Shown here in pieces: positions 9,541-29,986 of a stretch of DNA of 64,000 nucleotides. Below the pieces are notes generated by a model, which ran no database searches, was not told the DNA's origin, and worked only from the letters and a program-made list of their open reading frames with translations. This stretch comes from a virus: positions 1 to 64,000 of the IMG/VR virus record IMGVR_UViG_3300045146_000214, one strand, 5' to 3'. Within the stretch, counting starts at the first letter, position 1; each line of letters begins with the position of its first letter. The position numbers were made by a program, and so were the translations under genes.

Positions 9541-9573
9541 CGGTTTTTGGCCTTAGAGTTTTTAAGATTTTCA

Positions 9574-11918: not shown

Positions 11919-12662
11919 CTACTTCTTGTAACAAAATGCACAATTATGAGCATATTCACAATACTTACAAAGGAACCCAGGCTTTGCCTCAAATATTTTC
12001 TTTTCTCGTATTTCCTTTATCTTAGAATACACACCATATGAAAAAAAGCCAGTCTCTTTCTTTGATAATACAACTGGCTTCGATAACGTGTTGTTCCGAA
12101 TGTAAAAAATTCTTGCCGATATACTATGGTTGCCAAACAGCCCATTGCTCTTCAATGCCATAAGAAGATAGCTTTGAAGCTGAAACTTAAATCGTATATC
12201 ATTTTCACTTTTAGCGCTTTTATAGTCAACAATCTCATAGTGTTCATTGTCATACGTATAAATCAAATCTGCAATACCGCGCATCATTGAAAACTCATCT
12301 AGAGTATACGTCAAATATTTTTCTTCAAAAACAGTCTTAGCATTATTCAATATATTTGTCTTGAACTCAACAATATTACCAACAACCTTTTGTATTTCCT
12401 TCATTTTATCAGCATACACATCAGCACTATATGATATACCCTTAAACGCTTCGGCGATTAGCTCATCAACGTTTGCGCCAATTTTATACTTCTCTGCAAT
12501 AGTGTGAAACGCCTTACCTTCATGTGTTTCAATATTATCCGGCTCCACACCAGTTTCGCCGTCAATGTATCTTCTTTTATAACGAAACGGACACTGTTCA
12601 AATGTTTTAAGTTTAGACGGAGAGAAATCTTCTTTTTTGACATTACCAAAAACTGTTACCAT
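11919..12662 (-). CDS. PD-(D/E)xK Cas4/RecB-like exonuclease
   Basis: FSPSKL..FEQCP, GKAFH, RGIADL, IVDYKS, QLQSY, C-terminal CKYCEYAHNC. Confidence 0.85.
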   Translation of the reverse strand: MVTVFGNVKKEDFSPSKLKTFEQCPFRYKRRYIDGETGVEPDNIETHEGKAFHTIAEKYKIGANVDELIAEAFKGISYSADVYADKMKEIQKVVGNIVEFKTNILNNAKTVFEEKYLTYTLDEFSMMRGIADLIYTYDNEHYEIVDYKSAKSENDIRFKFQLQSYLLMALKSNGLFGNHSISARIFYIRNNTLSKPVVLSKKETGFFSYGVYSKIKEIREKKIFEAKPGFLCKYCEYAHNCAFCYKK

Positions 12663-15600
12663 AGCGACATTTCCATTTGTAGTGTATGGCCAATTAATGC
12701 TTTATTGTCTGTATTTGTAGCACTCAATTGACCGTATTTTATATTACCTGATAATTCGTTGACTATAGATGTGTCCTTAACCGCACTGACAAATTGAACA
12801 AATCCATTGTTTTTTGAGACAACACACCGTATAATGTCACCCGCAGTAATATTGTCTTTCTCAAACTCTTCTAACTCCCATACAAAAATATTAAAAGAGC
12901 CACCATCTACTATAATCATCTTATAGGGTTTGTTCTTTTTTGTTTTCTTACTAATGATGTCTTTCACTCGAAACGCAATTTCATATTTTCCGCTTTCATT
13001 ACTGGCAACATATTGTAATGTATGATGTGCTTTGATAGCTGATACCTTGTCCAACATGTCAAAGTTAATTCCGATTAAATCCTTTTCAATGTTAAGCAAT
13101 TCATTAACAGAGAAGTTTTCGACCTTATCTTTTGTGCTTGTCATTATTTTATACGCTTGCCACATATCATTTCGACCAATATTGAATACATCACATGCAC
13201 CGCAAAATATCAAGGAAAATACACTCGCCTTATTAAACTTATTGATAATCGTAAAATCAATAAAGTTCTTGAATGTTTTGAAGTGTGATTTCTTATTGAC
13301 CAATTGCAGCAAATCTTTTGACATAATACCTTTGATGTAGCGCAGGCCATAGCGGATGTGGTATTGCTCGTCAAGAATAAATTGCTCAGAAGGATTGTTT
13401 ATATCTGGTGGCAGCACAGAAATTGGATATAACACGGTTTCCCCATTAACGTGAAATGGAAGTTTTTTGTTATTAATATTATTGATAACCTCACTAATCT
13501 TGTCAATGTTCTTGTCGCCAAGGTTGTTTAACACACTGGTGTAGAATTCAAAGCCATAGTAATATTTCAACCACATGTCAAAATCAGCAATAATGGAATA
13601 GCATACTGCATGAGCACGACAGAACGCATATTCGGAAAGACGTTCCATTTCATCCCATAATCTGTTTGCTTCGACACTGCCAATTTTCTCTGTGGCATTT
13701 GAAATGAACTTATCTTTGTATTTTTTAACTGAAACAATGTCTGATTTTTTAATAAGCAGCTTTCTTACTTTATTTGCCTCTTTTGAGGAAAAATCACCAA
13801 TTTGCATACACAACTGCATACATTGTTCTTGGAAGATGATAATACCATACGAGTCACCAAGAATTGGTTGTAACTTTTCATGAAGCGTATAACGCTCTTG
13901 TCCCGTTGCTCTACGAATGTATGTTTCCGTTGAACCATAGCGAATTGTTGCCGGTCTCAAAATACTATTTAACGCAACCAAATGTTCAAAGTTACTTGGC
14001 TTCAATCTACTCAATATCGGTTTCGCAGTGTTCGTTCCAAACTGAAAAATACAATCATACCCATTATCAGTTGTGTTGGCATAATTAAAAACATCCTTAT
14101 CGTCTATACCACAGTCTCTATAGATGTCAATATCAACAGCATTACCATTACTGTTTTTAACAATAAATGGTGGAAGAACATTTTTTCCGTTTTTAGCTTC
14201 ATAACATTTTCGAAACTTGCGTATAAGCGACAAGGAGTCGTCAATTACTTGAACGTTGGTGACGCGCAATAAATCATATTTGTAATAACCAAGGTCTGAG
14301 AGTGTGTCACCATCCCAACCGGACACAATTGTATCGTTATAATGGTAATATGGGATAAGATCACCAAGTGGTGTGTTTTTGTCGCCAATTACAACACCCG
14401 CCGGATGTTTACCGCTTGAGCGATATGTGCCATGCAGTGTATCAAGTATAGAAATATCCTCTACCAGTTCAGATATTTTCCTATACATGTTAGGGCACAC
14501 TTCTTCTAGGTGAAAAAAATCTAAATGCTCATAGTCATTTTCAATTTCCTTGGTAAGCTCATTCGCCTCCATAAAGGGAACATTATAAAACCTTAGAATG
14601 TCCTTAATGACCGATTTCCACTTGTATTCTTGTAACGTTCCAATTGGTATGCTGTTGGGATATTTTTCATAGATGTATTTTTTGACATGCTCATGCACAT
14701 TCTGAGCAAAATCCAAGTCAACATCTGGGCCAGAGCCAGACTCAATTTTTGACTCATCTAAAAATCTCTCAAACAAAAGATTGTGCTTTATCGGATCAAT
14801 TTCTGTAATGCCAAGACAATACAACACCAATGATGCTGCTGCACTACCACGGCCTGGAGCCATGCTGGTAACGCCATAGTTTTTCTTTGTCCAACTTACG
14901 AAGTCGTATAAAACGTCAATGTAACTATCAATCTTAAGTTTTTTAATGACTTCCATTTCATACGCAATTCTGTCTCTGTATTGTGCAATATCGGCAATAC
15001 CACGTATTTTTGCCCCTTTTATTACTTCTGCTACAAGGTCTTCAAAATTTGTTTCTTTTGGCCTTGGAATATTTGAGACGATATTAGGTATGAAATTCCC
15101 AACTCTCTCAACAAATATTTTCCTATTGTTCTCTATCGCTTCATCAAATACTTTATCGGTAAATAATTCAGTTTTGAGATTGTTGTTCCAATATGTTCGT
15201 AATTCATCATATGTTTTAAAGTATGTTTCTTTGCACGTCTCTTCAACATATTTGATTGACTTAGCATTCTTCTCTTGCCGTTCTTGAATATCCTGTAATG
15301 TAAGGTTCTCTCGCAGCGCATGAAGAATATAAGACGCTTGCCAATCCGACTTTTTAACAAAGTGGATGTCATTTGAAATAACACAAGGAATTGACAGCTT
15401 TTTAGAAAGCATAATCAATGCATCGTTATATTCGCACACATTATCAACATCAACAGCGGTCAATTCTAAAAAGAAGTTCTCGCCAAAGATTTTTTTATAC
15501 TTCTTCGCATAGGCAATCGCTTCTTCAATGTTGTTTTTACGATATGATTTACCGATCAGCCCACCAATACAAGCAGAAGTTATTATCAATCCATCCTTAT

Positions 15601-16018
15601 GCTGCTTAATTTTCTCGGTTGTGATGAGAGGTTTGTTATAGAAGTTATCAGCGGAAAACGCCACAATATTCATAAGATTTTTGTAGCCAGCGGCATTATA
15701 CGCTATAAGAATAAGGTGACGAACAGACTCGGAGTATAGTTTCTTCGCCAGTTCCGAGTCTTTATTATCTCGTGCCTTTAGAATATCGTTGAGGTTGTCA
15801 CAAACATATGCCTCAATACCAGCTACAGGAATGATATTGTTTTCTTTGCACTTGAAATACAAATCAGCAAATGAATTAATATTGCCGTGTTCCGTAATAC
15901 ACACATGCGAAATGTTGTTTTCTTTATGAACCCTAACAACATCTTCTACGTTACAGATGGCGTCACCAACAGACCCTTTTGAAGTATGTTGGTGAAAGTT
16001 GTAAAACAATTTGTTCAT
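12656..16018 (-). CDS. dnaE: DNA polymerase III alpha subunit (family C)
   Basis: PHP domain (HQHT..S, ITEHG, GIEAY, SNDIHF), APGRGSAA, LLFERFL, PDVDLD, KHPAGVV, KYDLL, IIIFQEQ, YAFCRAHAVCY. Confidence 0.95.
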   Translation of the reverse strand: MNKLFYNFHQHTSKGSVGDAICNVEDVVRVHKENNISHVCITEHGNINSFADLYFKCKENNIIPVAGIEAYVCDNLNDILKARDNKDSELAKKLYSESVRHLILIAYNAAGYKNLMNIVAFSADNFYNKPLITTEKIKQHKDGLIITSACIGGLIGKSYRKNNIEEAIAYAKKYKKIFGENFFLELTAVDVDNVCEYNDALIMLSKKLSIPCVISNDIHFVKKSDWQASYILHALRENLTLQDIQERQEKNAKSIKYVEETCKETYFKTYDELRTYWNNNLKTELFTDKVFDEAIENNRKIFVERVGNFIPNIVSNIPRPKETNFEDLVAEVIKGAKIRGIADIAQYRDRIAYEMEVIKKLKIDSYIDVLYDFVSWTKKNYGVTSMAPGRGSAAASLVLYCLGITEIDPIKHNLLFERFLDESKIESGSGPDVDLDFAQNVHEHVKKYIYEKYPNSIPIGTLQEYKWKSVIKDILRFYNVPFMEANELTKEIENDYEHLDFFHLEEVCPNMYRKISELVEDISILDTLHGTYRSSGKHPAGVVIGDKNTPLGDLIPYYHYNDTIVSGWDGDTLSDLGYYKYDLLRVTNVQVIDDSLSLIRKFRKCYEAKNGKNVLPPFIVKNSNGNAVDIDIYRDCGIDDKDVFNYANTTDNGYDCIFQFGTNTAKPILSRLKPSNFEHLVALNSILRPATIRYGSTETYIRRATGQERYTLHEKLQPILGDSYGIIIFQEQCMQLCMQIGDFSSKEANKVRKLLIKKSDIVSVKKYKDKFISNATEKIGSVEANRLWDEMERLSEYAFCRAHAVCYSIIADFDMWLKYYYGFEFYTSVLNNLGDKNIDKISEVINNINNKKLPFHVNGETVLYPISVLPPDINNPSEQFILDEQYHIRYGLRYIKGIMSKDLLQLVNKKSHFKTFKNFIDFTIINKFNKASVFSLIFCGACDVFNIGRNDMWQAYKIMTSTKDKVENFSVNELLNIEKDLIGINFDMLDKVSAIKAHHTLQYVASNESGKYEIAFRVKDIISKKTKKNKPYKMIIVDGGSFNIFVWELEEFEKDNITAGDIIRCVVSKNNGFVQFVSAVKDTSIVNELSGNIKYGQLSATNTDNKALIGHTLQMEMSLW

Positions 16019-16632
16019 TATTTCTTTACCTTCTTTTCCTTTTTATCGTTGTCTTTTACCTCTTTAATTATCTTGCCGATTTCTTGCTTTCTGCGTTTTA
16101 GCCTTCGTACTACTTCTTCACTGCCAAACCAAAAGTCATGGCCATCAAACAATTTTTCCAATTCTTCGTCTGTCAAGAAAAACCTATAAATGTCTCGAAA
16201 AATATTCTTAAATAAATCATCCTTGAAATCTACGCTGGCTTTATTCTCCTGTCCCTTACCTCGTTCAGAAGAAGAATACCAATGACATAACATTTGGCTA
16301 CCATATTCAACCTTAATATTTCCGGTTGCGCTTAGTAGGATTAACGATGCTGCACTTAGAGCACTACCAGACAATACAACATTAACAGGAATTCTACAGT
16401 TCTTAATCGCGGAAATTATTTGCATAGCAGTATGAAGATAACCACCATAACTGTTAATATAAAGAATAATACCATTCTCACCACTAATTGTATTAAGCAA
16501 ATGCAGTAACTTTACATATTTATCTGGCGACTCAATCGGGGAGTTCATGTAAACGTGGTGAATTGTCTTTGTAAACGTCTGCTCAACTATGCTTATCGCT
16601 TCTTCTTGAACTTTATTATCCGTGTTGTTCAT
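16018..16632 (-). CDS. ClpP-like serine protease
   Basis: LYINSYGG, GSALSAASLIL (catalytic Ser), QMLCH (His), DFWF. Confidence 0.8.
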   Translation of the reverse strand: MNNTDNKVQEEAISIVEQTFTKTIHHVYMNSPIESPDKYVKLLHLLNTISGENGIILYINSYGGYLHTAMQIISAIKNCRIPVNVVLSGSALSAASLILLSATGNIKVEYGSQMLCHWYSSSERGKGQENKASVDFKDDLFKNIFRDIYRFFLTDEELEKLFDGHDFWFGSEEVVRRLKRRKQEIGKIIKEVKDNDKKEKKVKK

Positions 16633-16640
16633 AAACCTCT

Positions 16641-17957
16641 TTAATTCATTGTTAATTCACGAATATGGCATCTTGCTGGATTAAACCCCATTAGTGTAAA
16701 CTGATTAGCTCTCGACTCTCCAAATCTATTAAACAAAACACTAACGCGCAATTGATTAAGTTCTTGTTCTGACTGGTTTTGAGAGATGACAATCGTTGCA
16801 TCGGCAATTCGTGTTTTATCAACCGAACCACCTAAAGACTGCTCTACCTCTTCGTCTATTTTATTACCAGAATTTTTCGTTCTCTGAAACGCTGTAATAA
16901 CACAGCAATTAAGTTGTGACGCCAATGCTTTTGCTTCACGATATGTATACGCCTCTTTAATCCAAGGGTTATTATCGTGAGCTTTTTCTATTGAGTTGAT
17001 GGTAGTGTGGTCAATATAATCAATCACAATAACTTCTGGAACAAACGAGTATTTTGCTTTCAATATATCAACATAGCATCGTATATCATTAACATTAGCA
17101 GTTCCCATTGGAAATTCTTTGATTATAAGCGAGTGTTTATCCACACCAAATTCTTTTTTAATCTGTTCAATAACTTCATTGAGTTTTTCTGGATAATTCT
17201 TTACGATATTAATGTCTTTATTGAGCACCATGGCATCAAGACGAACTTTCTGCATTAATTCAGAAAGCTCCAATGATACAAACAAAACTTTTGTATTTCT
17301 CAACATTAACTGGCCTGCAATATTAAGTAGCATCATTGACTTGCCTGACTTTTGACTGCCTGCAAATGCAATGAGCGACTTTTTAGGAAAACCACCACCA
17401 AAAACATTGTCAAAGAAATGAAAACCACTCTTGATAAATTCAATTTTTTCGTTGGCATAGCTCATTGGGTCAAGATACACCAACCCACCAGAACCAACTG
17501 CCCGTAGCGACTCGGCCTCTTGCAGTCTTTTGATAACTGTTGAAAAGTTACCAGTGTTAATATCAGAAATTGACTTGCGCAGCGCATCCGTCATTCGATT
17601 GTTAATTACAAATTTTTTGGCCTGTTCAAAAACGTATTCAGCTTCATTCTTATCCTCAATAAAACTGACAATATCCTGTTCAATTTGTAACAAACAATTA
17701 ATCGCTTTAACTTTTACATCACCAGTTTCATGTTTTTGAACGTGGTCTTTCAGCATCGTCAGCGTTGGAACTTCCGTAAGTGTTTCGTGCAAGGCCGCAA
17801 TCGCCGCAAATATTGCCTTATTTTCTTCAACATCAAAAAAGCATTTATTGATATATGGTATAAGACTTTTAAGTTGCTTATCTCCGCGCAATATTGAGCG
17901 TAGCAATATTAGCTCAAAATGCGGTTCTAAAAAAATAGTTTGTGTTTCATTTACCAT
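16641..17957 (-). CDS. Replicative SF4 helicase (DnaB/T4 gp41-like)
   Basis: AGSQKSGKS, VSLEL, IIKEFP, VIVIDY, ITAFQ, NRFG. Confidence 0.9.
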   Translation of the reverse strand: MVNETQTIFLEPHFELILLRSILRGDKQLKSLIPYINKCFFDVEENKAIFAAIAALHETLTEVPTLTMLKDHVQKHETGDVKVKAINCLLQIEQDIVSFIEDKNEAEYVFEQAKKFVINNRMTDALRKSISDINTGNFSTVIKRLQEAESLRAVGSGGLVYLDPMSYANEKIEFIKSGFHFFDNVFGGGFPKKSLIAFAGSQKSGKSMMLLNIAGQLMLRNTKVLFVSLELSELMQKVRLDAMVLNKDINIVKNYPEKLNEVIEQIKKEFGVDKHSLIIKEFPMGTANVNDIRCYVDILKAKYSFVPEVIVIDYIDHTTINSIEKAHDNNPWIKEAYTYREAKALASQLNCCVITAFQRTKNSGNKIDEEVEQSLGGSVDKTRIADATIVISQNQSEQELNQLRVSVLFNRFGESRANQFTLMGFNPARCHIRELTMN

Positions 17958-18414
17958 GACTATTAAACCTCTTGATTGGTTTTATATTTGTGTTTTGATG
18001 ATAATAGCCCTTATGATTAGTTGACAAATTAGTCAAATAGTTCTTGCTGTTAATATCCGTCAAACCATGATATACATACTTTGTAAAGCTGTGACTCTTT
18101 ACAAGATCGCGTATCTTATTATACAATATCATGTAACAAAAAGCAAAACATACACGTTTTTTATTGCCATTGTAGTGCTTGAGTTTGTTAAACATATGTG
18201 TAATACATGTTATTTGTATGTCAAGCCAATCCTCATTGTTCAAGTTTTTATACCCTCGCACCGAAACATATGCTCGAATTATCTTGCTTATCTCCCAAAA
18301 CGCACAAAACAATTTTTCTTCATTTGGTTTTGACTTATCTTTTCTATAGTTTATTATCAATTCATGCAGTAATTGAGACGTTACTTGATTTTTTAAATTA
18401 TAAGGTAATACCAT
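17947..18414 (-). CDS. Possible T4 gp55-like late sigma factor
   Basis: DIQITCITHMFNKLKHYNGNKKRVCFAFCYMILYNKIRD resembles sigma region 2 of gp55. Small size and position near gp46/47 fit. Confidence 0.5.
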   Translation of the reverse strand: MVLPYNLKNQVTSQLLHELIINYRKDKSKPNEEKLFCAFWEISKIIRAYVSVRGYKNLNNEDWLDIQITCITHMFNKLKHYNGNKKRVCFAFCYMILYNKIRDLVKSHSFTKYVYHGLTDINSKNYLTNLSTNHKGYYHQNTNIKPIKRFNSHGK

Positions 18415-18416
18415 TA

Positions 18417-18923
18417 TTAACCCTCCTCATTAACAATACATAAATTTTCTAAAAGGCCAAAATCTATTTCTTCAAATCCATTAATGGTGAAGCGACCACA
18501 AAATATTCCTTTATGTAACTCGACCACTCGATTGTTTGCTAATTTTCCACTTCTGAGACTTCTCGTAAAATACATTATAGGTCGCTGATTTGATTTAACA
18601 ATAAGCAGCCAATCTTCTTTACCTTCCTTGTCAAGTTTATCTATCCATTTACGAATATCTGATTTAGCATTTTGCATATCATACATAATATTGAGATTCT
18701 TATAGCTCTTACACTCAATATTTGTATACCAGTTTTTTAATAGATTATGATCATAGGTCACATCGCCGCGCTGACCGTCAACTGCTAAACTTTTCCCCTT
18801 ATGAATTGTAGCATATGCTCCAGAATTGGCGGTGCGGAAAAACTCAACACCAGTTCTTTCTGTTAAAAACTTTGCAACATATCGCTCAAATGTCTTTCCT
18901 TTATTGCATCCATTAACCCCCAT
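18417..18923 (-). CDS. Holliday junction resolvase (Hjc-like)
   Basis: KGKTFERYVA, FFRTANSGA, GDV, IECKSY. Confidence 0.75.
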   Translation of the reverse strand: MGVNGCNKGKTFERYVAKFLTERTGVEFFRTANSGAYATIHKGKSLAVDGQRGDVTYDHNLLKNWYTNIECKSYKNLNIMYDMQNAKSDIRKWIDKLDKEGKEDWLLIVKSNQRPIMYFTRSLRSGKLANNRVVELHKGIFCGRFTINGFEEIDFGLLENLCIVNEEG

Positions 18924-18932
18924 GTTGCTTCC

Positions 18933-19784
18933 TTATATATGTTTTAAAATGTGTGCGACTACATCAACTGTCCACGCATTACCAATCAACTTAACAGCCC
19001 TGTGGTAACTAACAGATTTTGTATACTCTGCCGGAAGTGTTTGTAACCGCTCCATTTCGCATTGTGTAAAATAACGCCACTTAACTTCTTTTGATGGAAC
19101 TCTGCCAACACGCTTCTCGCTGGCAACATTATCTTTTGCGACTGTAGAAAGGCAATTGGTGTAATTATCATAGCGACTTTCTATGTATTGCACAATGGGA
19201 ATACTCATGTTGTAATCATCTCGCTTTCCGTTTTTCAACCTTCTTCCGCGCATTGCTCCTGCATACCACCCATCATCACACACATCTTCCCAGTGTGTTT
19301 CTTTATCGGTTGGAAGTGTTATATCTGGTATGTTTGTCCAATACAGTCTTTTCCGATCTTGTGCGCTTACTAATTTACTATTAATGTAAATCGGCTCCAC
19401 ACCAATGAAGTTACTTATTACATTTTGCCATTCTTTCCTCATGCAAACATTTTCAAGCAAAAAATACTTTGGCTTACATTCATTGATAAGACGGATGAAC
19501 TCAAAGAACAAAGCACTACGATGGTCAGAAAAATTAAGCCCTTTGCCAGAGTATGAAAATCCCTGGCAAGGACTACCACCAATCAACAAATCTATTTTAG
19601 GCAATGCTTTCGCAGAAAGTTTTTGAATACTCCCTACTTGTAGTGTATTAGGAAAGTGTAACTGTGTTATCGTAATAGCATCTTTATTGATTTCAGAAGC
19701 GTAATAATCTTTAACTTTTATTTTTGCTCTTTGTAATGCTATTTGACCACACGATATACCGTCAAAGCAGGAGAGAACGTTCAT
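18933..19784 (-). CDS. DNA cytosine-C5 methyltransferase
   Basis: VLSCFDG, IGGSPCQGFS, FLLENV, SAQDRKRLYW, ERLQTLP, IGNAW. Start ATG 19784 follows a GAGG RBS. Confidence 0.9.
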   Translation of the reverse strand: MNVLSCFDGISCGQIALQRAKIKVKDYYASEINKDAITITQLHFPNTLQVGSIQKLSAKALPKIDLLIGGSPCQGFSYSGKGLNFSDHRSALFFEFIRLINECKPKYFLLENVCMRKEWQNVISNFIGVEPIYINSKLVSAQDRKRLYWTNIPDITLPTDKETHWEDVCDDGWYAGAMRGRRLKNGKRDDYNMSIPIVQYIESRYDNYTNCLSTVAKDNVASEKRVGRVPSKEVKWRYFTQCEMERLQTLPAEYTKSVSYHRAVKLIGNAWTVDVVAHILKHI

Positions 19785-20187
19785 TTTTATCCTCAAATTT
19801 TCTTTTTGTAAAGAACTTTTCTTTTTCCAAACTACGCACTCTATGTAGCCTGTAAACGATTTTATAGTCTACGGTGTTTTTGGATTTCTCCAACTCCAAC
19901 ACCAGCGGTAAAATATTTGTTGTTGCGTAAATCTCATTAACGATATAGATTGCCGCAATGCTCAATGCGGGAGGGCAAACCATAACAAATTCATATTCGA
20001 GAAGCTGGTCTCTAACTTCGTCTATCACATTCACAATCTGTTGATAACAATTCGACTTCAAATTTAAAGCAATTTGTTTTCTAATAGTTGTAACCGGAAC
20101 TCCTAACGTATGAGATATGTCGTTATTAACAGTCTCGTCAAAGATAAGTTCCGAAAAATTAAGAAACAATACTTCTCGCTTTTTCAT
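19762..20187 (-). CDS. Csx15-like protein (CRISPR ring-nuclease-associated family), stand-alone
   Basis: LFLNFSE...VMVCPPALSIAAIYIVNEIYATTNILPLVLEL...RSLEKEK resembles the Csx15 pattern as recalled (LNFSHP...VNPPSL..AA..LAELHG..G.FP.I.RL...NLQ..R). Length is 141 aa. Confidence 0.55.
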   Translation of the reverse strand: MKKREVLFLNFSELIFDETVNNDISHTLGVPVTTIRKQIALNLKSNCYQQIVNVIDEVRDQLLEYEFVMVCPPALSIAAIYIVNEIYATTNILPLVLELEKSKNTVDYKIVYRLHRVRSLEKEKFFTKRKFEDKNERSLLL

Positions 20188-20195
20188 GTCTTTCC

Positions 20196-20465
20196 TTATT
20201 CTTCTTCTTCACGCCCTTCATCATCACCATCCATCTTCTTCAACTTCTTATAATATTTTGAATCTTCTCTCAAGTGATCTAGTGCAATACCCGCGACTAT
20301 ATCCATATCATTATTAACCGTTTCTGCATGTTCCTTTTCAACAAAAAATCCTTCTTGCATATCTTCACGCGAAAAATCTTCTTCTTCAAAGTCAACACCT
20401 AACTTATCAATAGCGTCGTCGGCTTCCTTGCACTCTTGTAAAAGCTGTTTAATAGTCATCTTCAT
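20196..20465 (-). CDS. DUF5661-like small acidic phage protein
   Basis: G..VEKEH...IALDHLREDSKYYKKLKKM signature. Confidence 0.7.
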   Translation of the reverse strand: MKMTIKQLLQECKEADDAIDKLGVDFEEEDFSREDMQEGFFVEKEHAETVNNDMDIVAGIALDHLREDSKYYKKLKKMDGDDEGREEEE

Positions 20466-22207
20466 ACTGTTTCTCCATTATGGGTTATTTTATCGCCTTT
20501 AATTACAGACACACCATTTTGTTTGACAATCGTTAATACATTTTCTTCATCCAGAAAGTTTTTCGACTCTGAATTGTGACTCACTAAAAATACCGTGCTC
20601 ATATCTCTACATTTTGTTTTCAGCAAGTCAATAACTGCCTCAATACCCACAGGGTCTAATTTATCAAGCAATTCATCAAGAAACAATATGTTGCAACTAT
20701 GCTGTGCCGACATAATCTGCATAAGACTAATTGCTATAGCCACATCCACACGCCTACGCTCACCTTGGCTCATGGTGCTATAATTGCCAATCTTATCGGT
20801 TATGTCCTCATCAAACTCAAATGGCAAATACTCTTTCGGTGACAAATACTGTAAAAACGTATCAATGTTTCTGTTGAGTAAATTGATGACGTTTCTTAAA
20901 AATATGTTACGAATACCGTCATAACCAAATAGCTTTTCACAAATTGACAGCTTCTCAAGATCATTCTTCATTTCCTTGGTCGCATTATCAAGGTCATTAA
21001 TTTCATTTGCCAGAGACGTTAATTCGGAAATTGAATTCTCTAAAGCAACAGAATATGGGTTCTGTCCCAATTCTAAGGACCTAATTTTCTCTTTGCATAC
21101 ATCCTTTTTGTGTAGAATGTCTACTATTGACATTCTATCTAGCATAGTGTACACTATGTTTGTCTTTTTGTCAATTTGTTCATCAAGTTTTTTGATAACA
21201 CTAATTGCCGCATTTATCTTTTCGTTGTTTTCCTGTATTTCTTGTTCCTTAACATGAGTGGACTCGTCAATGCTTTTCTTATAGTGAGCATAATCACTAA
21301 TAGATTGTTTACATGTCGGACATATTTCCGGTAGCTGCTTTTTCTTTTCTGCAACAATCACTCCATACAACTTCTTGTTGATCTCTTTAAATGATTTGAC
21401 GTCGTAGTTCTTTGCGTTCTTTTCTTGTTTGATTTTCTCCACTTCCTCCAATATTGCCTTAGCTTCAACAATATTATACTTATCCAGTTCAGCAATATCC
21501 TTTCTATAGTTCTCCAGCACTGCATCTTTTGTTTCATTCCAATTATTAAAGTTACCCTCCAATGCGGATTTCTTTATCACCAACTTATTATGCTGCTCTT
21601 TCTTGTTTTCGAATGTAGACGTTTTAATTACAAACGCTTGTTCTTGTTGTTTGAGCAACATTCGCGTTCTATTAAGGTAATCATCAAAATCTGTCAACTT
21701 AAACATCTTTTCGATAAACTCTCTTCTTTGAGACCTTGACTTATTCATAAACGAAGCAACCGTATCGCCGGATAAAACGTAACTGTTCTTGAATACCTCA
21801 AAAGGCATACCGATATGTGACTCAATTAACTGTTGTGTATCACTGGATGTTCCTTTGGTTATTTCTTCTCCATCAATCCACATGCGTAAAAAGTCAGGCT
21901 TTCTGCCACGGCTAACGATACAGTTGTCAAAATAAACCGTTACACAACAATATTTCTTTTCATCTCTATTGATAACATTATCTTTGCGGTCTGGTGAACG
22001 ATCCAAATTACCATATAACGCCCACAACACAGAAGATATTAAAGCACTTTTCCCACTACCATTGCTGCTTTTTGTATCGCCGTTGTCGGTCGCATCAATT
22101 GTGTCATTGTTATAGCCGACAATAAGGCACAAGCCCCTATCAGACAATTTGAAATGTGCCTTTTTAAACGAAAGGAAATTAGTAATCTCTACTTTATGTA
22201 TGTTCAT
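20462..22207 (-). CDS. SbcC/Rad50-like ATPase (T4 gp46-like)
   Basis: NFLSF, SSNGSGKS, CPTC zinc hook, MSQGE signature, LFLDE, LVSH. Confidence 0.92.
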   Translation of the reverse strand: MNIHKVEITNFLSFKKAHFKLSDRGLCLIVGYNNDTIDATDNGDTKSSNGSGKSALISSVLWALYGNLDRSPDRKDNVINRDEKKYCCVTVYFDNCIVSRGRKPDFLRMWIDGEEITKGTSSDTQQLIESHIGMPFEVFKNSYVLSGDTVASFMNKSRSQRREFIEKMFKLTDFDDYLNRTRMLLKQQEQAFVIKTSTFENKKEQHNKLVIKKSALEGNFNNWNETKDAVLENYRKDIAELDKYNIVEAKAILEEVEKIKQEKNAKNYDVKSFKEINKKLYGVIVAEKKKQLPEICPTCKQSISDYAHYKKSIDESTHVKEQEIQENNEKINAAISVIKKLDEQIDKKTNIVYTMLDRMSIVDILHKKDVCKEKIRSLELGQNPYSVALENSISELTSLANEINDLDNATKEMKNDLEKLSICEKLFGYDGIRNIFLRNVINLLNRNIDTFLQYLSPKEYLPFEFDEDITDKIGNYSTMSQGERRRVDVAIAISLMQIMSAQHSCNILFLDELLDKLDPVGIEAVIDLLKTKCRDMSTVFLVSHNSESKNFLDEENVLTIVKQNGVSVIKGDKITHNGETV

Positions 22208-23304
22208 GTGTCACTTTTCCCACTAATTATATTCAATGCTGTTTGAAGAACCGCATCAATCTTATCGTTGGATATGTTGCTTGATTTGAGCCATGACATA
22301 ATAACTTCTTCAATATTGTTCGTCAACGACTCCTGTGATGCAATTGGTGTTTCTTTGACCTCTAAATCATCAGAAGAACCAGTAAACGCAGAACAGCATT
22401 CAATCTTTAGCTGTTTTGGTTTAAACCTTTCTTCAAATAACTTTTTTAGTGTGATTAGCCACTCAGAACCCAAGTATTCGTTAATTTCAATTTTAACAAT
22501 ATTGTCGTTAAAGTTTTTCATTATGTTAAGCTCTTCCTTGCTCAACAAATCAATTTTATCTATTCGATGAACAATAAACTGACGGCAACATAATGGAATA
22601 AACTTACTCTCATGTGTTTCAGTGTCAAACACTACAAATCCATGCTCAATGTTTCTATCACCAAATGTTAATTGTAATGGTGAACCGATATAGCTTACGT
22701 TTGATTTTGTTTGATGTGAATGAAGGTGGCCAAGAAATACTTTATCAAATATCTTAAAATCACTTATGGATAATCGTGATTTACTTTCCTGCCCACTCTC
22801 TAAAGAAAACCCTCCAATATCAAGGTGTGAACAAAGAACATTGAAGGAATTACTATAGTTATTAATAATCTCTTCTTGTATCTTATTGAGAATGTTTAGT
22901 GTCTTATCATATTCTTCAATACAATGCAAAAACCAAAACGTGCATCCACCCAATTGCACACAACCATAATCTTTGTCATAAAACGTTTCCATTAATGACG
23001 AAAGATGACGGATATTATTCAGCCCTTGAATGAATATCTTAAATGGTGCATCATGGTTTCCTGCAACTGCATAAATCTTTTTGGTCTTGGAGATTTTTTC
23101 AAACAACTGATAGCTTTTATAGAGAGAGATTGAGGGGACATTATCACGTAAATGAAAAATATCTCCTAGAATTGCAAGAACAGAAATGCCATTGCATGAA
23201 CAATAATCATTGACTTGTTCTACGGCATTTAAACAATCATCCAATCTAAAAGAATTTGAACCATGTGGATGTATATGTAAATCAGCAATAAGCGCAATTT
23301 TCAT
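22204..23304 (-). CDS. SbcD/Mre11-like nuclease (T4 gp47-like)
   Basis: IADLH, LGDIFH, AGNHD, SH, LGHLH, YIGSP. Start MKIALI at 23304. Confidence 0.92.
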   Translation of the reverse strand: MKIALIADLHIHPHGSNSFRLDDCLNAVEQVNDYCSCNGISVLAILGDIFHLRDNVPSISLYKSYQLFEKISKTKKIYAVAGNHDAPFKIFIQGLNNIRHLSSLMETFYDKDYGCVQLGGCTFWFLHCIEEYDKTLNILNKIQEEIINNYSNSFNVLCSHLDIGGFSLESGQESKSRLSISDFKIFDKVFLGHLHSHQTKSNVSYIGSPLQLTFGDRNIEHGFVVFDTETHESKFIPLCCRQFIVHRIDKIDLLSKEELNIMKNFNDNIVKIEINEYLGSEWLITLKKLFEERFKPKQLKIECCSAFTGSSDDLEVKETPIASQESLTNNIEEVIMSWLKSSNISNDKIDAVLQTALNIISGKSDT

Positions 23305-23623
23305 ATTGACCATTTTTGAGAATAGCTTGCACAGAAGAAATATCAATGAAAAAGTATATTTCTCCGTCAACCAGTATTTCGCAACCACTAAACTTTTCTA
23401 TGAGCAATCTATCTCCTTTGTTAATAGTGGCCATCGCTCGTTTTTCTTCATCACTTTTGCCATCACCCTTGTCAATAACAACAGCCATTCTTAAAGTCGG
23501 GTCATCTCGCTGCGGAATATGAATGCCGCCAATTTGCTCCGTCATAATCTTTTTTACAAGGATAAGATTGCTCTTTTTAATAACCTTAATTTTATCTAAC
23601 GTAGTTGATACTGAGCTTTTCAT
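23282..23623 (-). CDS. GroES-like co-chaperonin
   Basis: ILVK...GGIHIP...AVVIDKGDG...INKGDRLLIEKFSGCEILVDGEIY...VQAIL. Confidence 0.8.
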   Translation of the reverse strand: MKSSVSTTLDKIKVIKKSNLILVKKIMTEQIGGIHIPQRDDPTLRMAVVIDKGDGKSDEEKRAMATINKGDRLLIEKFSGCEILVDGEIYFFIDISSVQAILKNGQYENCAYC

Positions 23624-23625
23624 CT

Positions 23626-24057
23626 TTAACCATTCGTGTTTGGTGTTATTAACTCTTCGGGAACAATTGCCTCTTCAACAGTGTTTGTATCAGAAAATTG
23701 GATGATTACATCTTCATATGCGACTACATCTTCATATGCGACTACATCTTCATATGTGTCGGTAACTGGGTCAATATAACCCAAATTTAAATCCCAATCA
23801 ATAAACACAGTAAAGTTAGTGTATGCAGAACCATCAGAGTAATGACTTACCGTAGGACAACGTGTATATAAAGCCCATGTCCCCTTAATCACAGTGTTGC
23901 TTACTAACTCTGGACTTTTTGCCAAATCTCTACGTGCAACAAGTGGAGCATTATCTGTTTTAAACACAGCGTAATCTTCTGCAAATATTTTATTATTAAC
24001 AGCAAAAACAGTGGCATATAAAACAAACATACCAATAAAAAATAGCATCTTTTTCAT
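23626..24057 (-). CDS. Hypothetical secreted protein
   Basis: Signal peptide MKKMLFFIGMFVLYATVFA; internal YEDVVA repeat. Confidence 0.7.
   Translation of the reverse strand: MKKMLFFIGMFVLYATVFAVNNKIFAEDYAVFKTDNAPLVARRDLAKSPELVSNTVIKGTWALYTRCPTVSHYSDGSAYTNFTVFIDWDLNLGYIDPVTDTYEDVVAYEDVVAYEDVIIQFSDTNTVEEAIVPEELITPNTNG
23707..23760. repeat. 18-bp tandem repeat x3 (tacatcttcatatgcgac)
   Basis: Directly visible; the third copy is degenerate. Confidence 0.9.
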
Positions 24058-24380
24058 TTTTTCTCCTTTTTGTTCATTTGATCTTCTATTCTCTCTATAT
24101 CGGCAATCAATTCATCATCAAAGATTTGCTTACTACCACAATATTGATAAAGACAATACGATAAAAACCCTATTGTAATTTTCTTTTTTATCTTATCCTT
24201 ATCAATAAAGTCCTCTAAACATTCCTTAAGTCTTTTAACGTTAGTCAGTTTTAACTTCTTGATTTTTGAGGGACATGAAGTTGTTAAAATCTCTATGCGA
24301 TTGTCAATTTCTGGGAAATTGATCATCATTGTTCCAATCGCACCAACAACAACCTCGCGTTCTTCTGTTGTATAGTTCAT
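24054..24380 (-). CDS. Hypothetical protein
   Basis: GGAG RBS and tight operon packing. Confidence 0.7.
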   Translation of the reverse strand: MNYTTEEREVVVGAIGTMMINFPEIDNRIEILTTSCPSKIKKLKLTNVKRLKECLEDFIDKDKIKKKITIGFLSYCLYQYCGSKQIFDDELIADIERIEDQMNKKEKK

Positions 24381-24392
24381 GGTGCTATCTCC

Positions 24393-25562
24393 TTATTCTT
24401 CTTCACTAACCTCTTCAAGCTCATAAGAATTGTTAAATGTTTTAATTTTATCCACCATATGCTTTAGCGAATCCCGAAACTCATCGGTATTGACTTTATC
24501 CTTATCGCCTCCAAGAATATGCTCTGCACCAGCAAAGGGCGTTTCTTTTTCTGCCAATTCCACAAAAACCTCAGAAACGTTTGATTTATTGAATTTAATA
24601 TTGGTGTTATAAAAGTTACACCACGCTCCTGCTTGTTCAATAAAACCTTCTTGCTTACCAATATTAATAAAGCCACTAAGAGGGTTAATTCCCTTGTCAT
24701 ACAATATGTCATATTCAACCTTGATGTCGGGAATGTAAATCTTATTCTTAATGACTTTAAGTTCGCCTTGAATTCCAATAGTTTTCTTTGTATCGGAATC
24801 TTGAATTTTTGCACGTGTTTTTGTCTGAACTCTCAATGAAGCATGGAATCTAAATGCAGATCCACCAGATGTAGTTGTTGAGTCGCCAAAAACTAGACCA
24901 ATTTTCTGTCGTGTCTGATTGATACAGATAAGTGTAATTTTCTGCCGCGCAATTTGTCCGGTGAGTTTGCGAAGACCCTTTGAATTAAGTCTCGCTCGTT
25001 CAGCCATTTCCGCATCTGAAATATCGCCATTAAGCTCTTTTGCCGTTGGTGTTGCCGTTACCGAGTCCCATACCATAGTAACATATTTTTCCGGTATCTT
25101 TTCACGTATCATTTTAACGGCACCTTCAATTTGCATCCACACACTTTCCAATGTTTCTGGATGAACGCGCATAAGTTTGTCAATGTCGCCACCTTGTCGT
25201 GCAAAATATTCCTTCCAAAATGCGTATTCTGTATCAAAAAGAATAGGAATGCCACCACGCCGCTGTGTTTCAATAACCGACATGGTGCTTAACAGTGTCT
25301 TACCACTTGCCTCTGACCCAAATACTTCAGTTACACGGCCAACAGGAAATCCACCAGTAACCGGCTTTCCAGAAATAGCATAGTTAATGCCATAATTGCC
25401 CGTTGAGATAAACTCATCACATGAAAAATCATCGGCACTTAATACTGACAAATCCGAGTCTGGCCCCATTGCCTCTCGAAGACTGTTGGCAATGTCACTG
25501 ATCATTTCACTGTTCATCGGTTTTTGTATTGTTTCTTCATCTATTCTTTTCTTTCTCGACAT
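24393..25562 (-). CDS. recA: RecA/UvsX recombinase
   Basis: ISTG, GFPVGRVTEVFGSEASGKT, FDTE, VWDSV, INQTRQKIG..FG, SGGSAFRFHASLR, VIKNK. Confidence 0.92.
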   Translation of the reverse strand: MSRKKRIDEETIQKPMNSEMISDIANSLREAMGPDSDLSVLSADDFSCDEFISTGNYGINYAISGKPVTGGFPVGRVTEVFGSEASGKTLLSTMSVIETQRRGGIPILFDTEYAFWKEYFARQGGDIDKLMRVHPETLESVWMQIEGAVKMIREKIPEKYVTMVWDSVTATPTAKELNGDISDAEMAERARLNSKGLRKLTGQIARQKITLICINQTRQKIGLVFGDSTTTSGGSAFRFHASLRVQTKTRAKIQDSDTKKTIGIQGELKVIKNKIYIPDIKVEYDILYDKGINPLSGFINIGKQEGFIEQAGAWCNFYNTNIKFNKSNVSEVFVELAEKETPFAGAEHILGGDKDKVNTDEFRDSLKHMVDKIKTFNNSYELEEVSEEE

Positions 25563-25582
25563 ATACTTAACTCCTTTTAGCT

Positions 25583-26734
25583 TTATAGTTTTTCGATTTT
25601 TTCACCTCTACCATATTTTTCGATAAGATTAACAAATTGTTGTTCGTCTTTACCTACCCAATTAAACAATCCTGATGTTTTTGTAATCGGCAAAAATCCA
25701 TGAATATGAGTGTATAACTTACGAAATCCACGCAGTTGTTGTTTTGTCCACCCCCTACTAACATAGGTGTGTCTCTTCAACGAAGTTAATGGCTCATATT
25801 CTTGTGGAAATAAAAACACCGTCTTGCCAACCTTTAACACTGATTTTTCTACACACCGTAACTTTTGATATAGCTCTTGTGGTGTATCATTAAAGTTATA
25901 CAGAAAATATGCAAAGTATTCTGCTCTAACTTTATGAGCTTTACACCAAAGTAATGACCGTTCCAATTCTTCTATTTGCTTCCATTTATCAAGTGCAAAA
26001 CGAATATACGTTGTTCCGTTTTTTGACTGTGATAAAAACGACACTTTAGCCAATGCCTGTATTTGCTCTTCTGTAATGATTAAATTATCCAAACCTTGTG
26101 AGAAATCAACGGGCAGATTATTTTCTCTAATCTCATCAACAATCTGAACAAAGTTTGGATGCGCAGTAAAGTTATTATCAAAAAGAACCAAGCCGTCAAA
26201 ATTCCGTTGCTTTTTCGCCTCCTCTATAACGGTAGATATTGACGGCATTGGTTTAAATGCGCCTTCGATTTTCGGCACACAACAAAAACCACATGTGTTT
26301 GGGCATCCTCTTGAGGCATACATTATAATTTTGTTGGTCGAAATGCCGTGTTCTTCCAAGGCGCGGTAATCTGGGATCACACTGTCTAAGTCATTATCAA
26401 GCCCAACGTGTGTTACAATATTATGATTGTCTTTAAAATACTGTGGCATTAATGACGCAAATATTCCTCCAACAACCCATCGTGCATGTGGAAACAGTTT
26501 TTGATAATGACTAATCCAATCGCTATACTTAGAAGCGTTATATGTAAAAAGAGTAGAAAGAAAGATAGTATCTGGAACAAACTCAATGTGCTTCGCCTTA
26601 TCCGAATGAATTTGATATTGAATATTGTTGGTATTACAATATGTTATCATCTTCATGGTCGCTAACGACGGGTGTTTTGTTTTGATGTCTTTCGGCACCA
26701 AAATAACTACCTTATCTTTCTTCTCTATGTTCAT
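25583..26734 (-). CDS. Radical SAM protein with B12-binding-like N-terminal domain
   Basis: ASRGCPNTCGFC (CxxxCxxC), VVGGIFASL, LFDNNF, DFSQGLD. Confidence 0.85.
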   Translation of the reverse strand: MNIEKKDKVVILVPKDIKTKHPSLATMKMITYCNTNNIQYQIHSDKAKHIEFVPDTIFLSTLFTYNASKYSDWISHYQKLFPHARWVVGGIFASLMPQYFKDNHNIVTHVGLDNDLDSVIPDYRALEEHGISTNKIIMYASRGCPNTCGFCCVPKIEGAFKPMPSISTVIEEAKKQRNFDGLVLFDNNFTAHPNFVQIVDEIRENNLPVDFSQGLDNLIITEEQIQALAKVSFLSQSKNGTTYIRFALDKWKQIEELERSLLWCKAHKVRAEYFAYFLYNFNDTPQELYQKLRCVEKSVLKVGKTVFLFPQEYEPLTSLKRHTYVSRGWTKQQLRGFRKLYTHIHGFLPITKTSGLFNWVGKDEQQFVNLIEKYGRGEKIEKL

Positions 26735-26752
26735 ACATCACCAACAATGATG

Positions 26753-27724: not shown

Positions 27725-27795
27725 TGTAACTCCTTGTTTTTTATTATTTTGTAACACGTATAAAATAACAGCACGGTGCTGAAATTTTCAACTCT

Positions 27796-27824
27796 AGTAT
27801 AGCACAATTTCCATGAATTGTCAA
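27796..27824 (-). promoter_or_regulatory. Sigma70-type promoter for the ssb operon
   Basis: TTGACA-17 bp-TATACT with an extended TG on the minus strand. Confidence 0.8.
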
Positions 27825-27836
27825 TTTCTCATCACT

Positions 27837-28292: not shown

Positions 28293-28303
28293 TCATTGAA
28301 AAC

Positions 28304-29820: not shown

Positions 29821-29896
29821 TAAAACGCAGAAGCAGAAGCAGATAGCTCACGCTTGGGAAAAACAATACTATACAGAACATTAATGTACTTTAGTG

Positions 29897-29986
29897 TACA
29901 GATTACAGATTACAGAGTACAGAGTACAGAGTACAGAGTACAGAGTACAGAGTACAGAGTACAGAGTACAGAAGAAGAGTACAGAT
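29897..29986. repeat. Intergenic 7-bp tandem array TACAGA(G/T/A) x11 plus one detached unit
   Basis: Counted directly; lies at the strand switch. Confidence 0.95.

Follow-up and report, generated by a model that had tools for sequence, protein, structure and literature searches.

To our knowledge, the only known means by which viruses interfere with type III CRISPR signalling are signal-cleaving enzymes, namely AcrIII-1, vSAVED/AcrIII-2 and the 2H phosphodiesterases. Csx15 dimers stack head-to-tail into filaments upon binding cA4. An earlier description of the gene analyzed here, made from the sequence, grouped Csx15 with Csx16 and Csx20 as proteins of the ring-nuclease type, in agreement with the available part of Hoikkala et al., according to which ~25% of cellular Csx15 proteins are found without a type III locus.

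Several Csx15 proteins have been characterized. In HaCsx15, H8A and R125A abolish cleavage and spare cA4 binding and multimerisation, as given in the accessible part of that report. In CliCsx15 (PDB 9teu), H13A abolishes cleavage and H90A abolishes oligomerisation. Chi et al. (2026) described PfCsx15 (PDB 9tet), an orphan, as a cA4 sponge with no enzymatic activity. H11 of PfCsx15 is needed for cA4 binding, and H11A abolishes cA4-induced oligomerisation and sequestration. Chi et al. argued that, because type III systems produce so much cOA, sponging is unlikely to work and may be futile, and that Csx15 is absent from phages. A Csx15 domain is also fused to a Schlafen nuclease in the cA4 sensor CbCash (PDB 9ylu), in which, by the available account, F241 and F275 provide aromatic stacking and R204 is a cation-pi residue. 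Lastly, viral Csx15 was proposed as 'AcrIII-3' (Klimavicius et al., bioRxiv Oct 2026). In the accessible part of that preprint, the set comprises >20 viral sequences found by BLAST that are rare, located mainly in prophage regions, and hypothesised to be ring nucleases.

A 141-aa gene among phage replication genes

We analyzed a window of 64,000 nucleotides from an 81,446-bp IMG/VR virus record that is ~35% complete and comes from an uncultured large lake-water phage. Profile searches indicated that the record encodes a DnaE-like polymerase, a UvsX-like protein, an SSB, a helicase and baseplate genes, in keeping with the stand-alone phage setting proposed earlier for the gene. The main features around the gene are listed in Table 1.

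Table 1. Features at and around the Csx15-like gene, with positions in the window
Feature	Position	Strand	Remarks
C5 cytosine DNA methyltransferase	18933..19784	-	downstream; PF00145, E 1.1e-38
Csx15-like gene (P0001), 141 aa	19762..20187	-	ORF and translation; phage-encoded protein of the Csx15 fold family, divergent and without the motif His
Ribosome-binding region of the Csx15-like gene	20188..20198	-	AAGGA-type Shine-Dalgarno, read from the sequence
DUF5661 gene, 89 aa, acidic	20196..20465	-	upstream, co-oriented; Pfam PF18905, E 1.3e-15
SbcC-like recombination nuclease gene	20462-22207	-	upstream, same tightly packed block; Pfam
SbcD-like recombination nuclease gene	22204-23388	-	upstream, same tightly packed block; Pfam

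The 141-aa ORF is a real gene. Searching 1.84 billion representatives with P0001 (phmmer) recovered 11 further proteins at E<=0.001, including 7 at E<=1e-10, and because these homologues exist P0001 is more than a chance ORF. The homologues share its start position. Translation gave exactly 141 aa, and everything that had been quoted from the protein was present: LFLNFSE (residues 7-13), VMVCPPALSIAAIYIVNEIYATTNILPLVLEL (residues 68-99) and a basic C-terminus (Lys/Arg-rich, residues 113-136). The AAGGA Shine-Dalgarno precedes the ATG at 20187 by 6 nt and overlaps the TAA (20196-20198) of the upstream DUF5661 gene, only 8 nt from the Csx15-like start. This overlap suggests that the two genes may be coupled. 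On the other side, the PF00145 domain of the methyltransferase begins at residue 5 of a TTG-started ORF. The likely start of the methyltransferase is the ATG at 19784, preceded by GAGGA 5 nt upstream, and from this ATG the methyltransferase overlaps the final 23 nt of the Csx15-like gene.

The gene sits in a replication/recombination block, with DnaB-like, PDDEXK, C5 methylase, DUF5661, SbcC-like and SbcD-like neighbours (Pfam), and is probably co-transcribed with these phage genes. A scan for promoters and terminators gave no informative signal, with 32 sites (34.7 expected) and no minus-strand terminator. GC content was ~35% and even over 15-25 kb, and therefore gives no sign of recent acquisition. 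Matching pieces of 151-242 nt, with 0-2 differences, were present in four other lake runs, and none spanned the Csx15-like gene; the same runs also contained low-likeness pieces of 35-47 nt from other organisms. These runs showed no variation within the gene usable for judging selection, and no RNA run was listed as carrying the sequence.

The preliminary description had noted that no cas operon or array was nearby. Within the reach of our searches this holds: none of 8 tandem-repeat rows of the window was CRISPR-like, no array was found, and the 81-kb record, ~35% complete, had no match to the one Cas10 model used, TIGR02577 (Cmr2/Cas10). No genomic association of P0001 with type III CRISPR-cas was seen in this record, and its neighbours are phage replication genes instead. 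In the same ~35% complete record there was no match to AcrIII-1/Crn2 (DUF1874, PF08960) at E<=0.01, and a 2H-phosphoesterase gene (PF13563) was not found. The window contained no tRNA. No recognisable anti-defence island was seen around the gene.

DNA-metabolism genes surrounded the homologue wherever neighbours were informative, both in the window and on other contigs. A metagenome contig (L004) carries SbcC and then the homologue, with synteny kept (identity is 67% at the SbcC end and 53% for the homologue). The homologue adjoins DnaB on one viral contig (L002) and a 5'-3' exonuclease on another (L007; 158 kb), and an N6/N4 methylase is near the homologue on contig L005. It is possible that P0001 has no role in counter-defence and is instead a Rossmann-like accessory, of Csx15-fold descent, that binds nucleotides or acts as a scaffold for a replication/recombination/methylation module. 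Such a role would fit these surroundings, the overlap with the methylase start, and the loss of several canonical ligand-contact residues (below). We nonetheless consider it unlikely. The neighbours vary from one contig to the next and hence do not point to a fixed partner. Phage counter-defence genes are often early or in the replication module. In addition, every characterized Csx15 domain, as far as the published descriptions available go, binds a cyclic oligoadenylate.

Relationship to Csx15

Two profiles for Csx15 matched P0001, each below its threshold. NCBIfam NF040560, the Csx15 equivalog model with a curated cut-off of 35 bits, matched residues 9-119 (profile positions 3-119 of 125) at E 4.6e-4 and 20.4 bits; that is, the protein's own score fails the equivalog threshold. 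The PADLOC Csx15 model (PDLC01376) matched at E 5.6e-4, also below threshold. Among the relatives, NF040560 matched 30/31 at E<=0.001, a level reached by no other NCBIfam family, and the PADLOC model matched 27/31. The 35-bit cut-off was passed by three of the ten relatives that were scored singly: P0010 (57.4 bits), P0008 (42.6 bits) and P0003 (35.6 bits). P0003 is 42% identical to P0001 (phmmer E 8.5e-23).

Structural comparisons pointed to the same family. A profile of the family (A3) matched exactly three PDB sequences at E<=1, and all are Csx15 domains: CbCash 9ylu (residues 168-276, E 0.0061), 9teu (E 0.043) and 9tet (E 0.091). P0010 itself matched 9tet at E 6.6e-6. The ESM Atlas has its own model of P0001 (pTM 0.71, pLDDT 0.74). 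The top three fold matches of this model were clusters of ~125 aa, with TM 0.67-0.75 over 113-114 residues, and one was automatically named Csx15. This third-party model thereby matches the Rossmann-like five-stranded fold of ~125 aa that marks Csx15. Several motifs are in register with Csx15: LNF(S/G), PP.L, E..A....P, and an aromatic residue followed by a basic helix. The Csx15 family match had first been made by eye, and the two HMMs, transitive homology, the PDB matches of the profile and the Atlas fold all agree with it. These comparisons show that P0001 is a divergent phage-borne homologue of Csx15, a Rossmann-like relative of CARF and SAVED domains that binds cyclic oligoadenylates.

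Other searches with the family returned little. In Pfam, P0001 matched nothing except Cyclin_C (E 0.11), PHROGs had no match, and no Pfam family was shared across the 31 members. phmmer of P0001 against the PDB gave 0 matches at E<=10. In a word-based protein search, P0001 retrieved only itself, and P0010 retrieved nothing beyond its close relatives, none of them named Csx15. Among GenBank phages (50,697 phage records) there was no match, either by megablast of 15000-25000 or by tblastn of P0001. There was likewise no match in plasmids (tblastn of P0010), no relative in contigs of prokaryote genomes (P0010 or A2), and no match in viral contigs with A2, P0029, P0023, P0013 or P0008.

The low scores of P0001 itself and the empty Pfam and PHROGs results could also mean that the likeness to Csx15 is chance or analogous Rossmann-like similarity, and that P0001 belongs to an unrelated phage family. 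A feature search of the Atlas ranked a Pam3_gp32 (PF23992) cluster first (0.90), and generic Rossmann folds (asparaginase, FtsZ, GT4) appeared in the Atlas at TM about 0.5. Pam3_gp32 was rejected, as PF23992 matched 0/31 members at E<=0.1; the listed papers on Pam3 that mention gp32 are cryo-EM work on virions. Chance similarity is very unlikely given that two independently built HMMs concur, that they match nearly all of the relatives, three of these above the curated cut-off, that the profile's PDB matches at E<=1 are confined to Csx15 domains, and that the shared motifs are in register.

The family also has tandem-duplicated relatives of 279-286 aa, which recall the idea that connects a duplicated Csx15 with vSAVED. 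One family member, P0013, had no SAVED match in the PDB; its sole PDB match, LptE (2r76, E 0.03), was judged chance or analogous.

Residues of the active site and pocket, and possible functions

We mapped residues by hand count from the HMMER alignment of the family profile to the PDB chains, together with the family columns (n=31). In solved Csx15 chains the canonical N-terminal motif is NFSGH, and P0001 has NFSEL. The preliminary description had read this as an NFSH-like motif altered to NFSE; the absence of the His holds in either register, and the form given for the canonical motif does not. The catalytic or binding His (H8 in HaCsx15, H11 in PfCsx15, H13 in CliCsx15) corresponds to L14 of P0001 in the 9teu alignment, or to E13 in the other register, and a His at positions 13/14 occurs in 0/31 family members. 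By the same hand count, the second conserved His (H82 in PfCsx15, H90 in CliCsx15) is Y87; over the 31 members this column has H in 13, Y in 10, F in 4, E in 3 and T in 1. The Ser of NFS is kept (S12).

Other parts of the pocket are retained. The aromatic residue that stacks on adenine (F106 in HaCsx15 and PfCsx15, Y113 in CliCsx15, F275 in CbCash) is kept as Y112, which aligns with Y113 of 9teu; position 112 is aromatic in 23/31 members and gapped in the alignment for the remaining 8. The position of CbCash F241 is L75, which we counted as kept, and that of CbCash R204 (by inference R37 of HaCsx15) is Ala40. Q50 aligns with a Gln of 9tet. In the C-terminal helix, 9teu has three Arg at +12, +16 and +19 from the aromatic residue, and their counterparts in P0001 are K124, K128 and F131. 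R118, R122 and R125 of HaCsx15 share these offsets, on which, and not on an alignment to HaCsx15, the mapping to that protein rests. F131 thus appears to occupy the position of the catalytic R125, a position that is Arg in 9/31 members. T/S127-R/K128 is kept in 30/31 members and K/R130 in 29/31. The most conserved residues of the clade are N10, Q50, P94, L120, E85, E98 and E123. By this mapping, the clade has lost the canonical residues for cutting the ring and keeps part of the ligand pocket. These losses strengthen the earlier guess that the altered motif marks a non-catalytic form: no member of the family has the first His, and in P0001 the second is Tyr and the inferred Arg is Phe.

With the cutting residues missing, P0001 is more likely to trap the signal than to cut it. 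Our leading proposal is that P0001 is a non-cutting binder of a cyclic oligonucleotide, that is, a sponge-type counter-defence protein, to which we give a probability of roughly 45%. P0001 would dimerise, and the dimer would bind the cyclic-oligonucleotide alarm signal of the host with no cleavage. The likeliest signal is predicted to be the cA4 of type III CRISPR, with cA3 or cAAG-type CBASS signals as further possibilities. Once sequestered, the signal would leave the host effector off. In favour of this, PfCsx15 is itself a cA4 sponge, and HaCsx15 still binds cA4 when H8 or R125 is replaced. The Csx15 domain of CbCash, which has no His in its motif, still binds cA4, by the available account of that protein, which shows that the lack of this His need not prevent such a domain from binding ligand. 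The earlier description had likewise proposed a candidate anti-CRISPR that would sponge or cut cOA.

Several observations count against a sponge. Given the defects of PfCsx15 H11A and CliCsx15 H90A, the loss of both His could also abolish binding in P0001. The position of CbCash R204 is Ala. The incomplete record has no AcrIII-1 or 2H-phosphoesterase gene to hint at pressure from cOA signalling, and the gene has replication genes around it where a recognisable anti-defence island would have been expected. The view of Chi et al. that sponging may be futile when type III cOA is abundant also applies here.

It is also conceivable, and in our estimate quite improbable, that P0001 is still a ring nuclease, similar to AcrIII-3, in which a non-canonical active site would do the cutting of cOA. 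As one possibility, S12, Y87/Y112 and the tail residues K124, K128, R129 and K130 could position the 2'-OH of the substrate for in-line attack. Other families of ring nucleases function without a His. P0001 retains the Csx15 fold together with part of the pocket, and the basic residues of the tail, T/S127-R/K128 and K/R130, are conserved in the clade. A ring nuclease would also fit the hypothesis of Klimavicius et al. for viral Csx15 homologues, as far as their preprint is available. In contrast, H8A in HaCsx15 and H13A in CliCsx15 each abolish cleavage in the available reports, and neither these His nor the second His nor the inferred R125 is present in P0001. Furthermore, we found no alternative conserved residue of a catalytic type.

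A broader version of the sponge proposal is doubtful: that there is a phage-specific, disarmed Csx15 clade in the replication modules of large environmental phages, and that it forms filaments that act as a cyclic-oligonucleotide sponge. A bolder form of this idea is that the clade would be a cOA sensor on the phage side that controls replication or methylation.

Significance and comparison with known systems

Viral Csx15 as an anti-type III factor is already in print in general form, and this limits the weight of the P0001 finding. If the notion of a disarmed sponge clade is correct, no earlier anti-type III CRISPR factor would have been non-enzymatic, and cross-protection against CBASS might come with it. 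A Csx15 clade that is conserved in phages and lacks the cutting residues would directly test the view of Chi et al. on sponging and on absence from phages, and through it the AcrIII-3 proposal, so far about rare copies in prophages, would come to include large phages of the virulent type. P0001 would also be, if it does bind, a natural separation-of-function variant for ligand binding by the Csx15 fold without the motif His.

P0001 resembles the canonical Csx15 proteins (HaCsx15, CsCsx15 and CliCsx15) in being a single domain of ~125-140 aa that begins with an LNFS motif near its N-terminus and continues with PP.L ahead of the central helix, E..A....P, Y112 and a basic C-terminal helix. It is unlike them in scoring below the cut-off, in lacking the catalytic His, the second His and the inferred catalytic Arg, and in lying in a phage replication module and not beside cas10. 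Like PfCsx15, P0001 is proposed to sequester and not to cut, and the two align at Q50 and its Gln. However, PfCsx15 is bacterial and P0001 is phage-encoded, and PfCsx15 keeps S9, H11, H82 and R116/R120/R123, whereas P0001 has only the Ser and two of the basic positions. The Csx15 domain of CbCash also has an N-terminal motif without His, and 9ylu is the best PDB match of the family profile; Cash, unlike P0001, is a fused effector of type III loci, and P0001 has no effector domain and has Ala40 in place of R204.

AcrIII-3, in the available part of its description, shares with P0001 that it is a virus-encoded, metagenomic Csx15 homologue proposed as an anti-type III CRISPR factor. P0001 differs from AcrIII-3 as described there in its location, the replication block of a large phage of the virulent type, and in having none of the catalytic residues. 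The AcrIII-3 sequences were found by BLAST, and P0001 was too divergent for tblastn in GenBank phages. Finally, AcrIII-1 (DUF1874), vSAVED AcrIII-2 and Acb2/Tad1/Tad2 have folds that are unrelated or distantly related to that of P0001, and they follow the same logic that we propose for P0001: removal of the messenger, by cutting or by sequestering it.

The Csx15-like gene and the phage that carries it

We found that the Csx15-like gene, encoding the protein P0001, is one link in a long, densely packed block of minus-strand genes. As read from the sequence, its ATG at 20187 is preceded by a Shine-Dalgarno sequence (AAGGA), and this ribosome-binding region contains the TAA stop codon with which the DUF5661 gene upstream ends. 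At its 3' end, the gene runs into that for the C5 DNA methylase. The true start of the methylase is most likely ATG 19784, not the listed TTG, because this ATG has GAGGA 5 nt before it and because the Pfam domain does not begin until residue 5 when the ORF is read from the TTG. The overlap would then be 23 nt, which suggests translational coupling of the two genes. No promoter or terminator signals above shuffled expectation were found, and GC content is uniform (~35%).

The sequence strings by which the preliminary description recognized a Csx15-like protein are all present in P0001, at the places it gave. A phmmer search with P0001 against 1.84 billion representatives detected 11 other proteins at E ≤ 0.001, seven of them at E ≤ 1e-10. 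Thus, the gene is real and conserved rather than a fortuitous reading frame.

Neighboring genes encode a DnaB-like helicase, a PDDEXK endonuclease, the C5 methylase, the DUF5661 protein, SbcC-like and SbcD-like nucleases, a Cpn10-like protein, a UvsX-like recombinase, SSB, a helicase, and baseplate proteins. In an unusual combination, the replication module has a DnaE-like Pol III alpha alongside a T4-style UvsX-like recombinase, together with a gp32-like SSB, a phrog_16 helicase, the DnaB-like helicase, an SbcCD-like nuclease and a Cpn10/GroES-like gene. The DnaE-like polymerase is less than 30% identical to that of any GenBank phage, including the DnaE-like polymerases of Streptomyces phages. 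Tandem repeats are also present in the window (Table). The 15-nt repeat fills an ORF of ~300 aa that would be a long pentapeptide-repeat protein. The heptamer array is at the switch from minus-strand to plus-strand genes (the minus block ends at 29755) and looks origin-like. The ORF containing the 18-nt repeat matched no Pfam family.

The virus record, of which the window is bases 1-64000, comes from a lake-water metagenome; it is linear and 81,446 bp, with a CheckV completeness of 35%; by arithmetic, the full genome would be roughly 230 kb. Four further runs of lake water, the product of four studies (2018 and 2025), contain near-identical short contig pieces (151-242 nt, 0-2 differences from window positions 18900-22300). 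Therefore, the phage population seems to recur across lake samples. No CRISPR-like array was found in the record, nor was there a match to Cmr2/Cas10, AcrIII-1 or a 2H phosphoesterase in its 81 kb. Because the record is incomplete, these absences carry little weight.

Table. Features of the window, residues of P0001, structural matches, and contigs carrying homologues
Feature	Position	Strand	Remarks
Csx15-like gene P0001, 141 aa	19762..20187	minus	ORF translation
C5 cytosine methylase ORF	18933-19796	minus	listed start TTG 19796; Pfam domain
Replication module	12656-29755
15-nt tandem repeat	772-1489		~47.6 copies (alternatively 60- or 75-nt periods, 73-74% matches); ORFs 681-1583, both strands
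GTACAGA array	29896-29985		13 copies
18-nt tandem repeat	23707-23756		perfect, 2.8 copies; within 143-aa ORF 23626-24057
NFS of NFSGH	P0001 N10-F11-S12		kept
Gly of NFSGH	P0001 E13		changed
His of NFSGH (Cli H13)	P0001 L14		lost
Cli H90	P0001 Y87		lost
Cli Y113	P0001 Y112		kept
Three Arg at +12, +16, +19 from aromatic	P0001 K124, K128, F131		two basic, third lost
9ylu, CbCash Csx15 domain	residues 168-276		E 0.0061 (20-member profile)
9teu			E 0.043 (20-member profile)
9tet			E 0.091 (20-member profile)
L004, 1.2 kb			SbcC gene end (67% identical to window SbcC), three small ORFs, homologue (53% identity)
L002, 8.9-kb IMG/VR contig			phage metallopeptidase, homologue, DnaB-like helicase, then SSB-, UvsX-, helicase-like genes
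L007, IMGVR_UViG_3300028920_000032, 158 kb	9274-10429		5'-3' exonuclease, GIY-YIG/NUMOD3 homing endonuclease, homologue
L005			N6/N4 DNA methylase, 94-aa ORF, homologue
L003			DUF268 methyltransferase-like gene, homologue

Relationship to Csx15

P0001 matched no Pfam or PHROGs family. Two independently built Csx15 models detected it below threshold: NCBIfam NF040560 (E 4.6e-4; 20.4 bits, cut-off 35; aligned nearly end to end) and PADLOC PDLC01376 (E 5.6e-4). Scores this low might indicate a spurious similarity, which we regard as very unlikely given the behavior of the relatives. The first alignment comprised P0001 and the 11 relatives found first, and every one of these 12 sequences matched NF040560 at E ≤ 0.1. 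In the enlarged alignment, 30 of 31 matched it at E ≤ 0.001, the sole miss being P0005 (E 0.0017), with no other NCBIfam family matched, and 27 of 31 matched the PADLOC model. Three of 10 relatives scored singly passed the curated NF040560 cut-off (P0010, 57.4 bits; P0008, 42.6; P0003, 35.6), and P0003 shares 42% identity with P0001 (E 8.5e-23).

A family profile of 20 members, compared to the PDB, found exactly three sequences at E ≤ 1, all Csx15 domains (Table). P0010 on its own matched 9tet, the structure of PfCsx15, with E 6.6e-6. The exact P0001 sequence is in the ESM Atlas (model pTM 0.71, pLDDT 0.74). Closest to this model in fold are three clusters of ~125 aa (TM 0.67-0.75 over 113-114 residues), one of them automatically named Csx15; generic Rossmann folds scored lower (TM ~0.5). 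Based on the two HMMs, the relatives, the PDB profile matches and the Atlas fold, we conclude that P0001 is a genuine but divergent Csx15 homologue.

Relatives and their genomic contexts

Maximum-likelihood analysis of the 31 sequences groups P0001, P0002-P0005 and the protein from contig L003 into a well-supported 'NFS' clade of six members (support 100/99). Gene order in L004 is that of the window, and the SSB-, UvsX- and helicase-like genes of L002 are homologous to their counterparts in the window. In L007, a homing endonuclease gene is directly upstream of the homologue and downstream of the 5'-3' exonuclease gene; it may be a mobile insertion. No cas genes were found in the L002, L003, L004, L005 and L007 contexts, four of which are only 1.1-8.9 kb. 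The match in a further contig (L006, 1.4 kb) spans only 28 residues, and additional scans of viral and genome contigs for relatives (P0010, P0011 and the duplicated clades) found nothing. It is possible, if rather unlikely, that P0001 is an accessory of the replication module with no role in defense. That it is consistently found among DNA-metabolism genes suits a role tied to replication just as well as a counter-defense one, and so counts against the latter.

In four metagenomic relatives of 279-286 aa (P0007, P0013, P0014 and P0015), which match the family profile at E 1e-67 to 1e-73, the Csx15-like domain is present twice in tandem. This arrangement is reminiscent of the 'duplicated Csx15' cluster, which Klimavicius et al. 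connect with how SAVED/vSAVED arose. A phmmer search of the PDB with P0013 found no SAVED and no Csx15 match.

Active-site residues and proposed mode of action

Canonical Csx15 proteins are reported to have a His in an N-terminal NFSGH motif (Ha H8, Pf H11, Cli H13), a second His (Pf H82, Cli H90), an adenine-stacking aromatic residue (Ha and Pf F106, Cli Y113) and three Arg in the C-terminal helix (Ha R118/R122/R125; Pf R116/R120/R123). We located these positions in P0001 by counting by hand along the HMMER alignment to 9teu (CliCsx15), whose chain numbering is native plus 7 and reproduces H13, H90 and Y113. Because Ha R118/R122/R125 are at the same offsets from F106, we infer, from equal offsets rather than an alignment to HaCsx15, that P0001 has Phe where the catalytic Arg would be. 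CbCash ligand residues F241 and R204 align with L75 and A40.

The loss of the motif His is general: none of the 31 family members has His at position 13 or 14. At position 87, 13 members have His, 10 Tyr, four Phe, three Glu and one Thr. An aromatic residue occupies position 112 in 23 members, the other eight having an alignment gap there; Arg or Lys is found at position 128 in 30, and Arg at position 131 in nine. N10, Q50, P94 and L120 are invariant, and F11, N42, Y48, P73, L75, E85, A88, E98 and E123 almost so.

The best-supported reading is that P0001 would bind a cyclic oligonucleotide without cutting it. P0001 retains the fold and some of the pocket, namely the motif Ser, L75, the aromatic residue for stacking and two basic positions of the tail; it has lost both His and the presumed catalytic Arg. 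HaCsx15 H8A and R125A are reported to lose cleavage and still bind cA4 and multimerize; cleavage is also abolished in CliCsx15 H13A. PfCsx15 is described as a cA4 sponge, and the CbCash Csx15 domain binds cA4 through aromatic stacking even though its motif contains no His; both count in favor of a non-cutting binder. The ligand need not be cA4, since Csx15 enzymes reportedly also accept cA3, cA5, cA6 and CBASS trinucleotides. Against binding, PfCsx15 H11A is reported to abolish it, CliCsx15 H90A is among the substitutions that cost binding or oligomerization, and P0001 lacks the equivalent of CbCash R204. In addition, Chi et al. doubt that sponging can match the cOA output of type III systems. 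We hold sponge-type counter-defense only tentatively, with a probability of about 0.45. That P0001 is a ring nuclease of a non-canonical kind seems improbable; the little that remains is left for other roles, including a phage-side cOA sensor.

Hoikkala et al. ran ring-nuclease HMMs on 28,114 phage genomes. Klimavicius et al. (bioRxiv, October 2026) describe viral Csx15 homologues: NCBI has a single one, carried by a Lokiarchaeota virus, and env_nr and IMG/VR together supplied more than 20. The authors report these as rare and mostly in prophage regions, and propose the homologues, with activity as a candidate only, under the name AcrIII-3, a term that a full-text literature search found only in that preprint. 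Thus, the general idea of a viral Csx15 is already published. To this P0001 adds a clade that is divergent and His-less, and that large, non-prophage phages carry within their replication modules.
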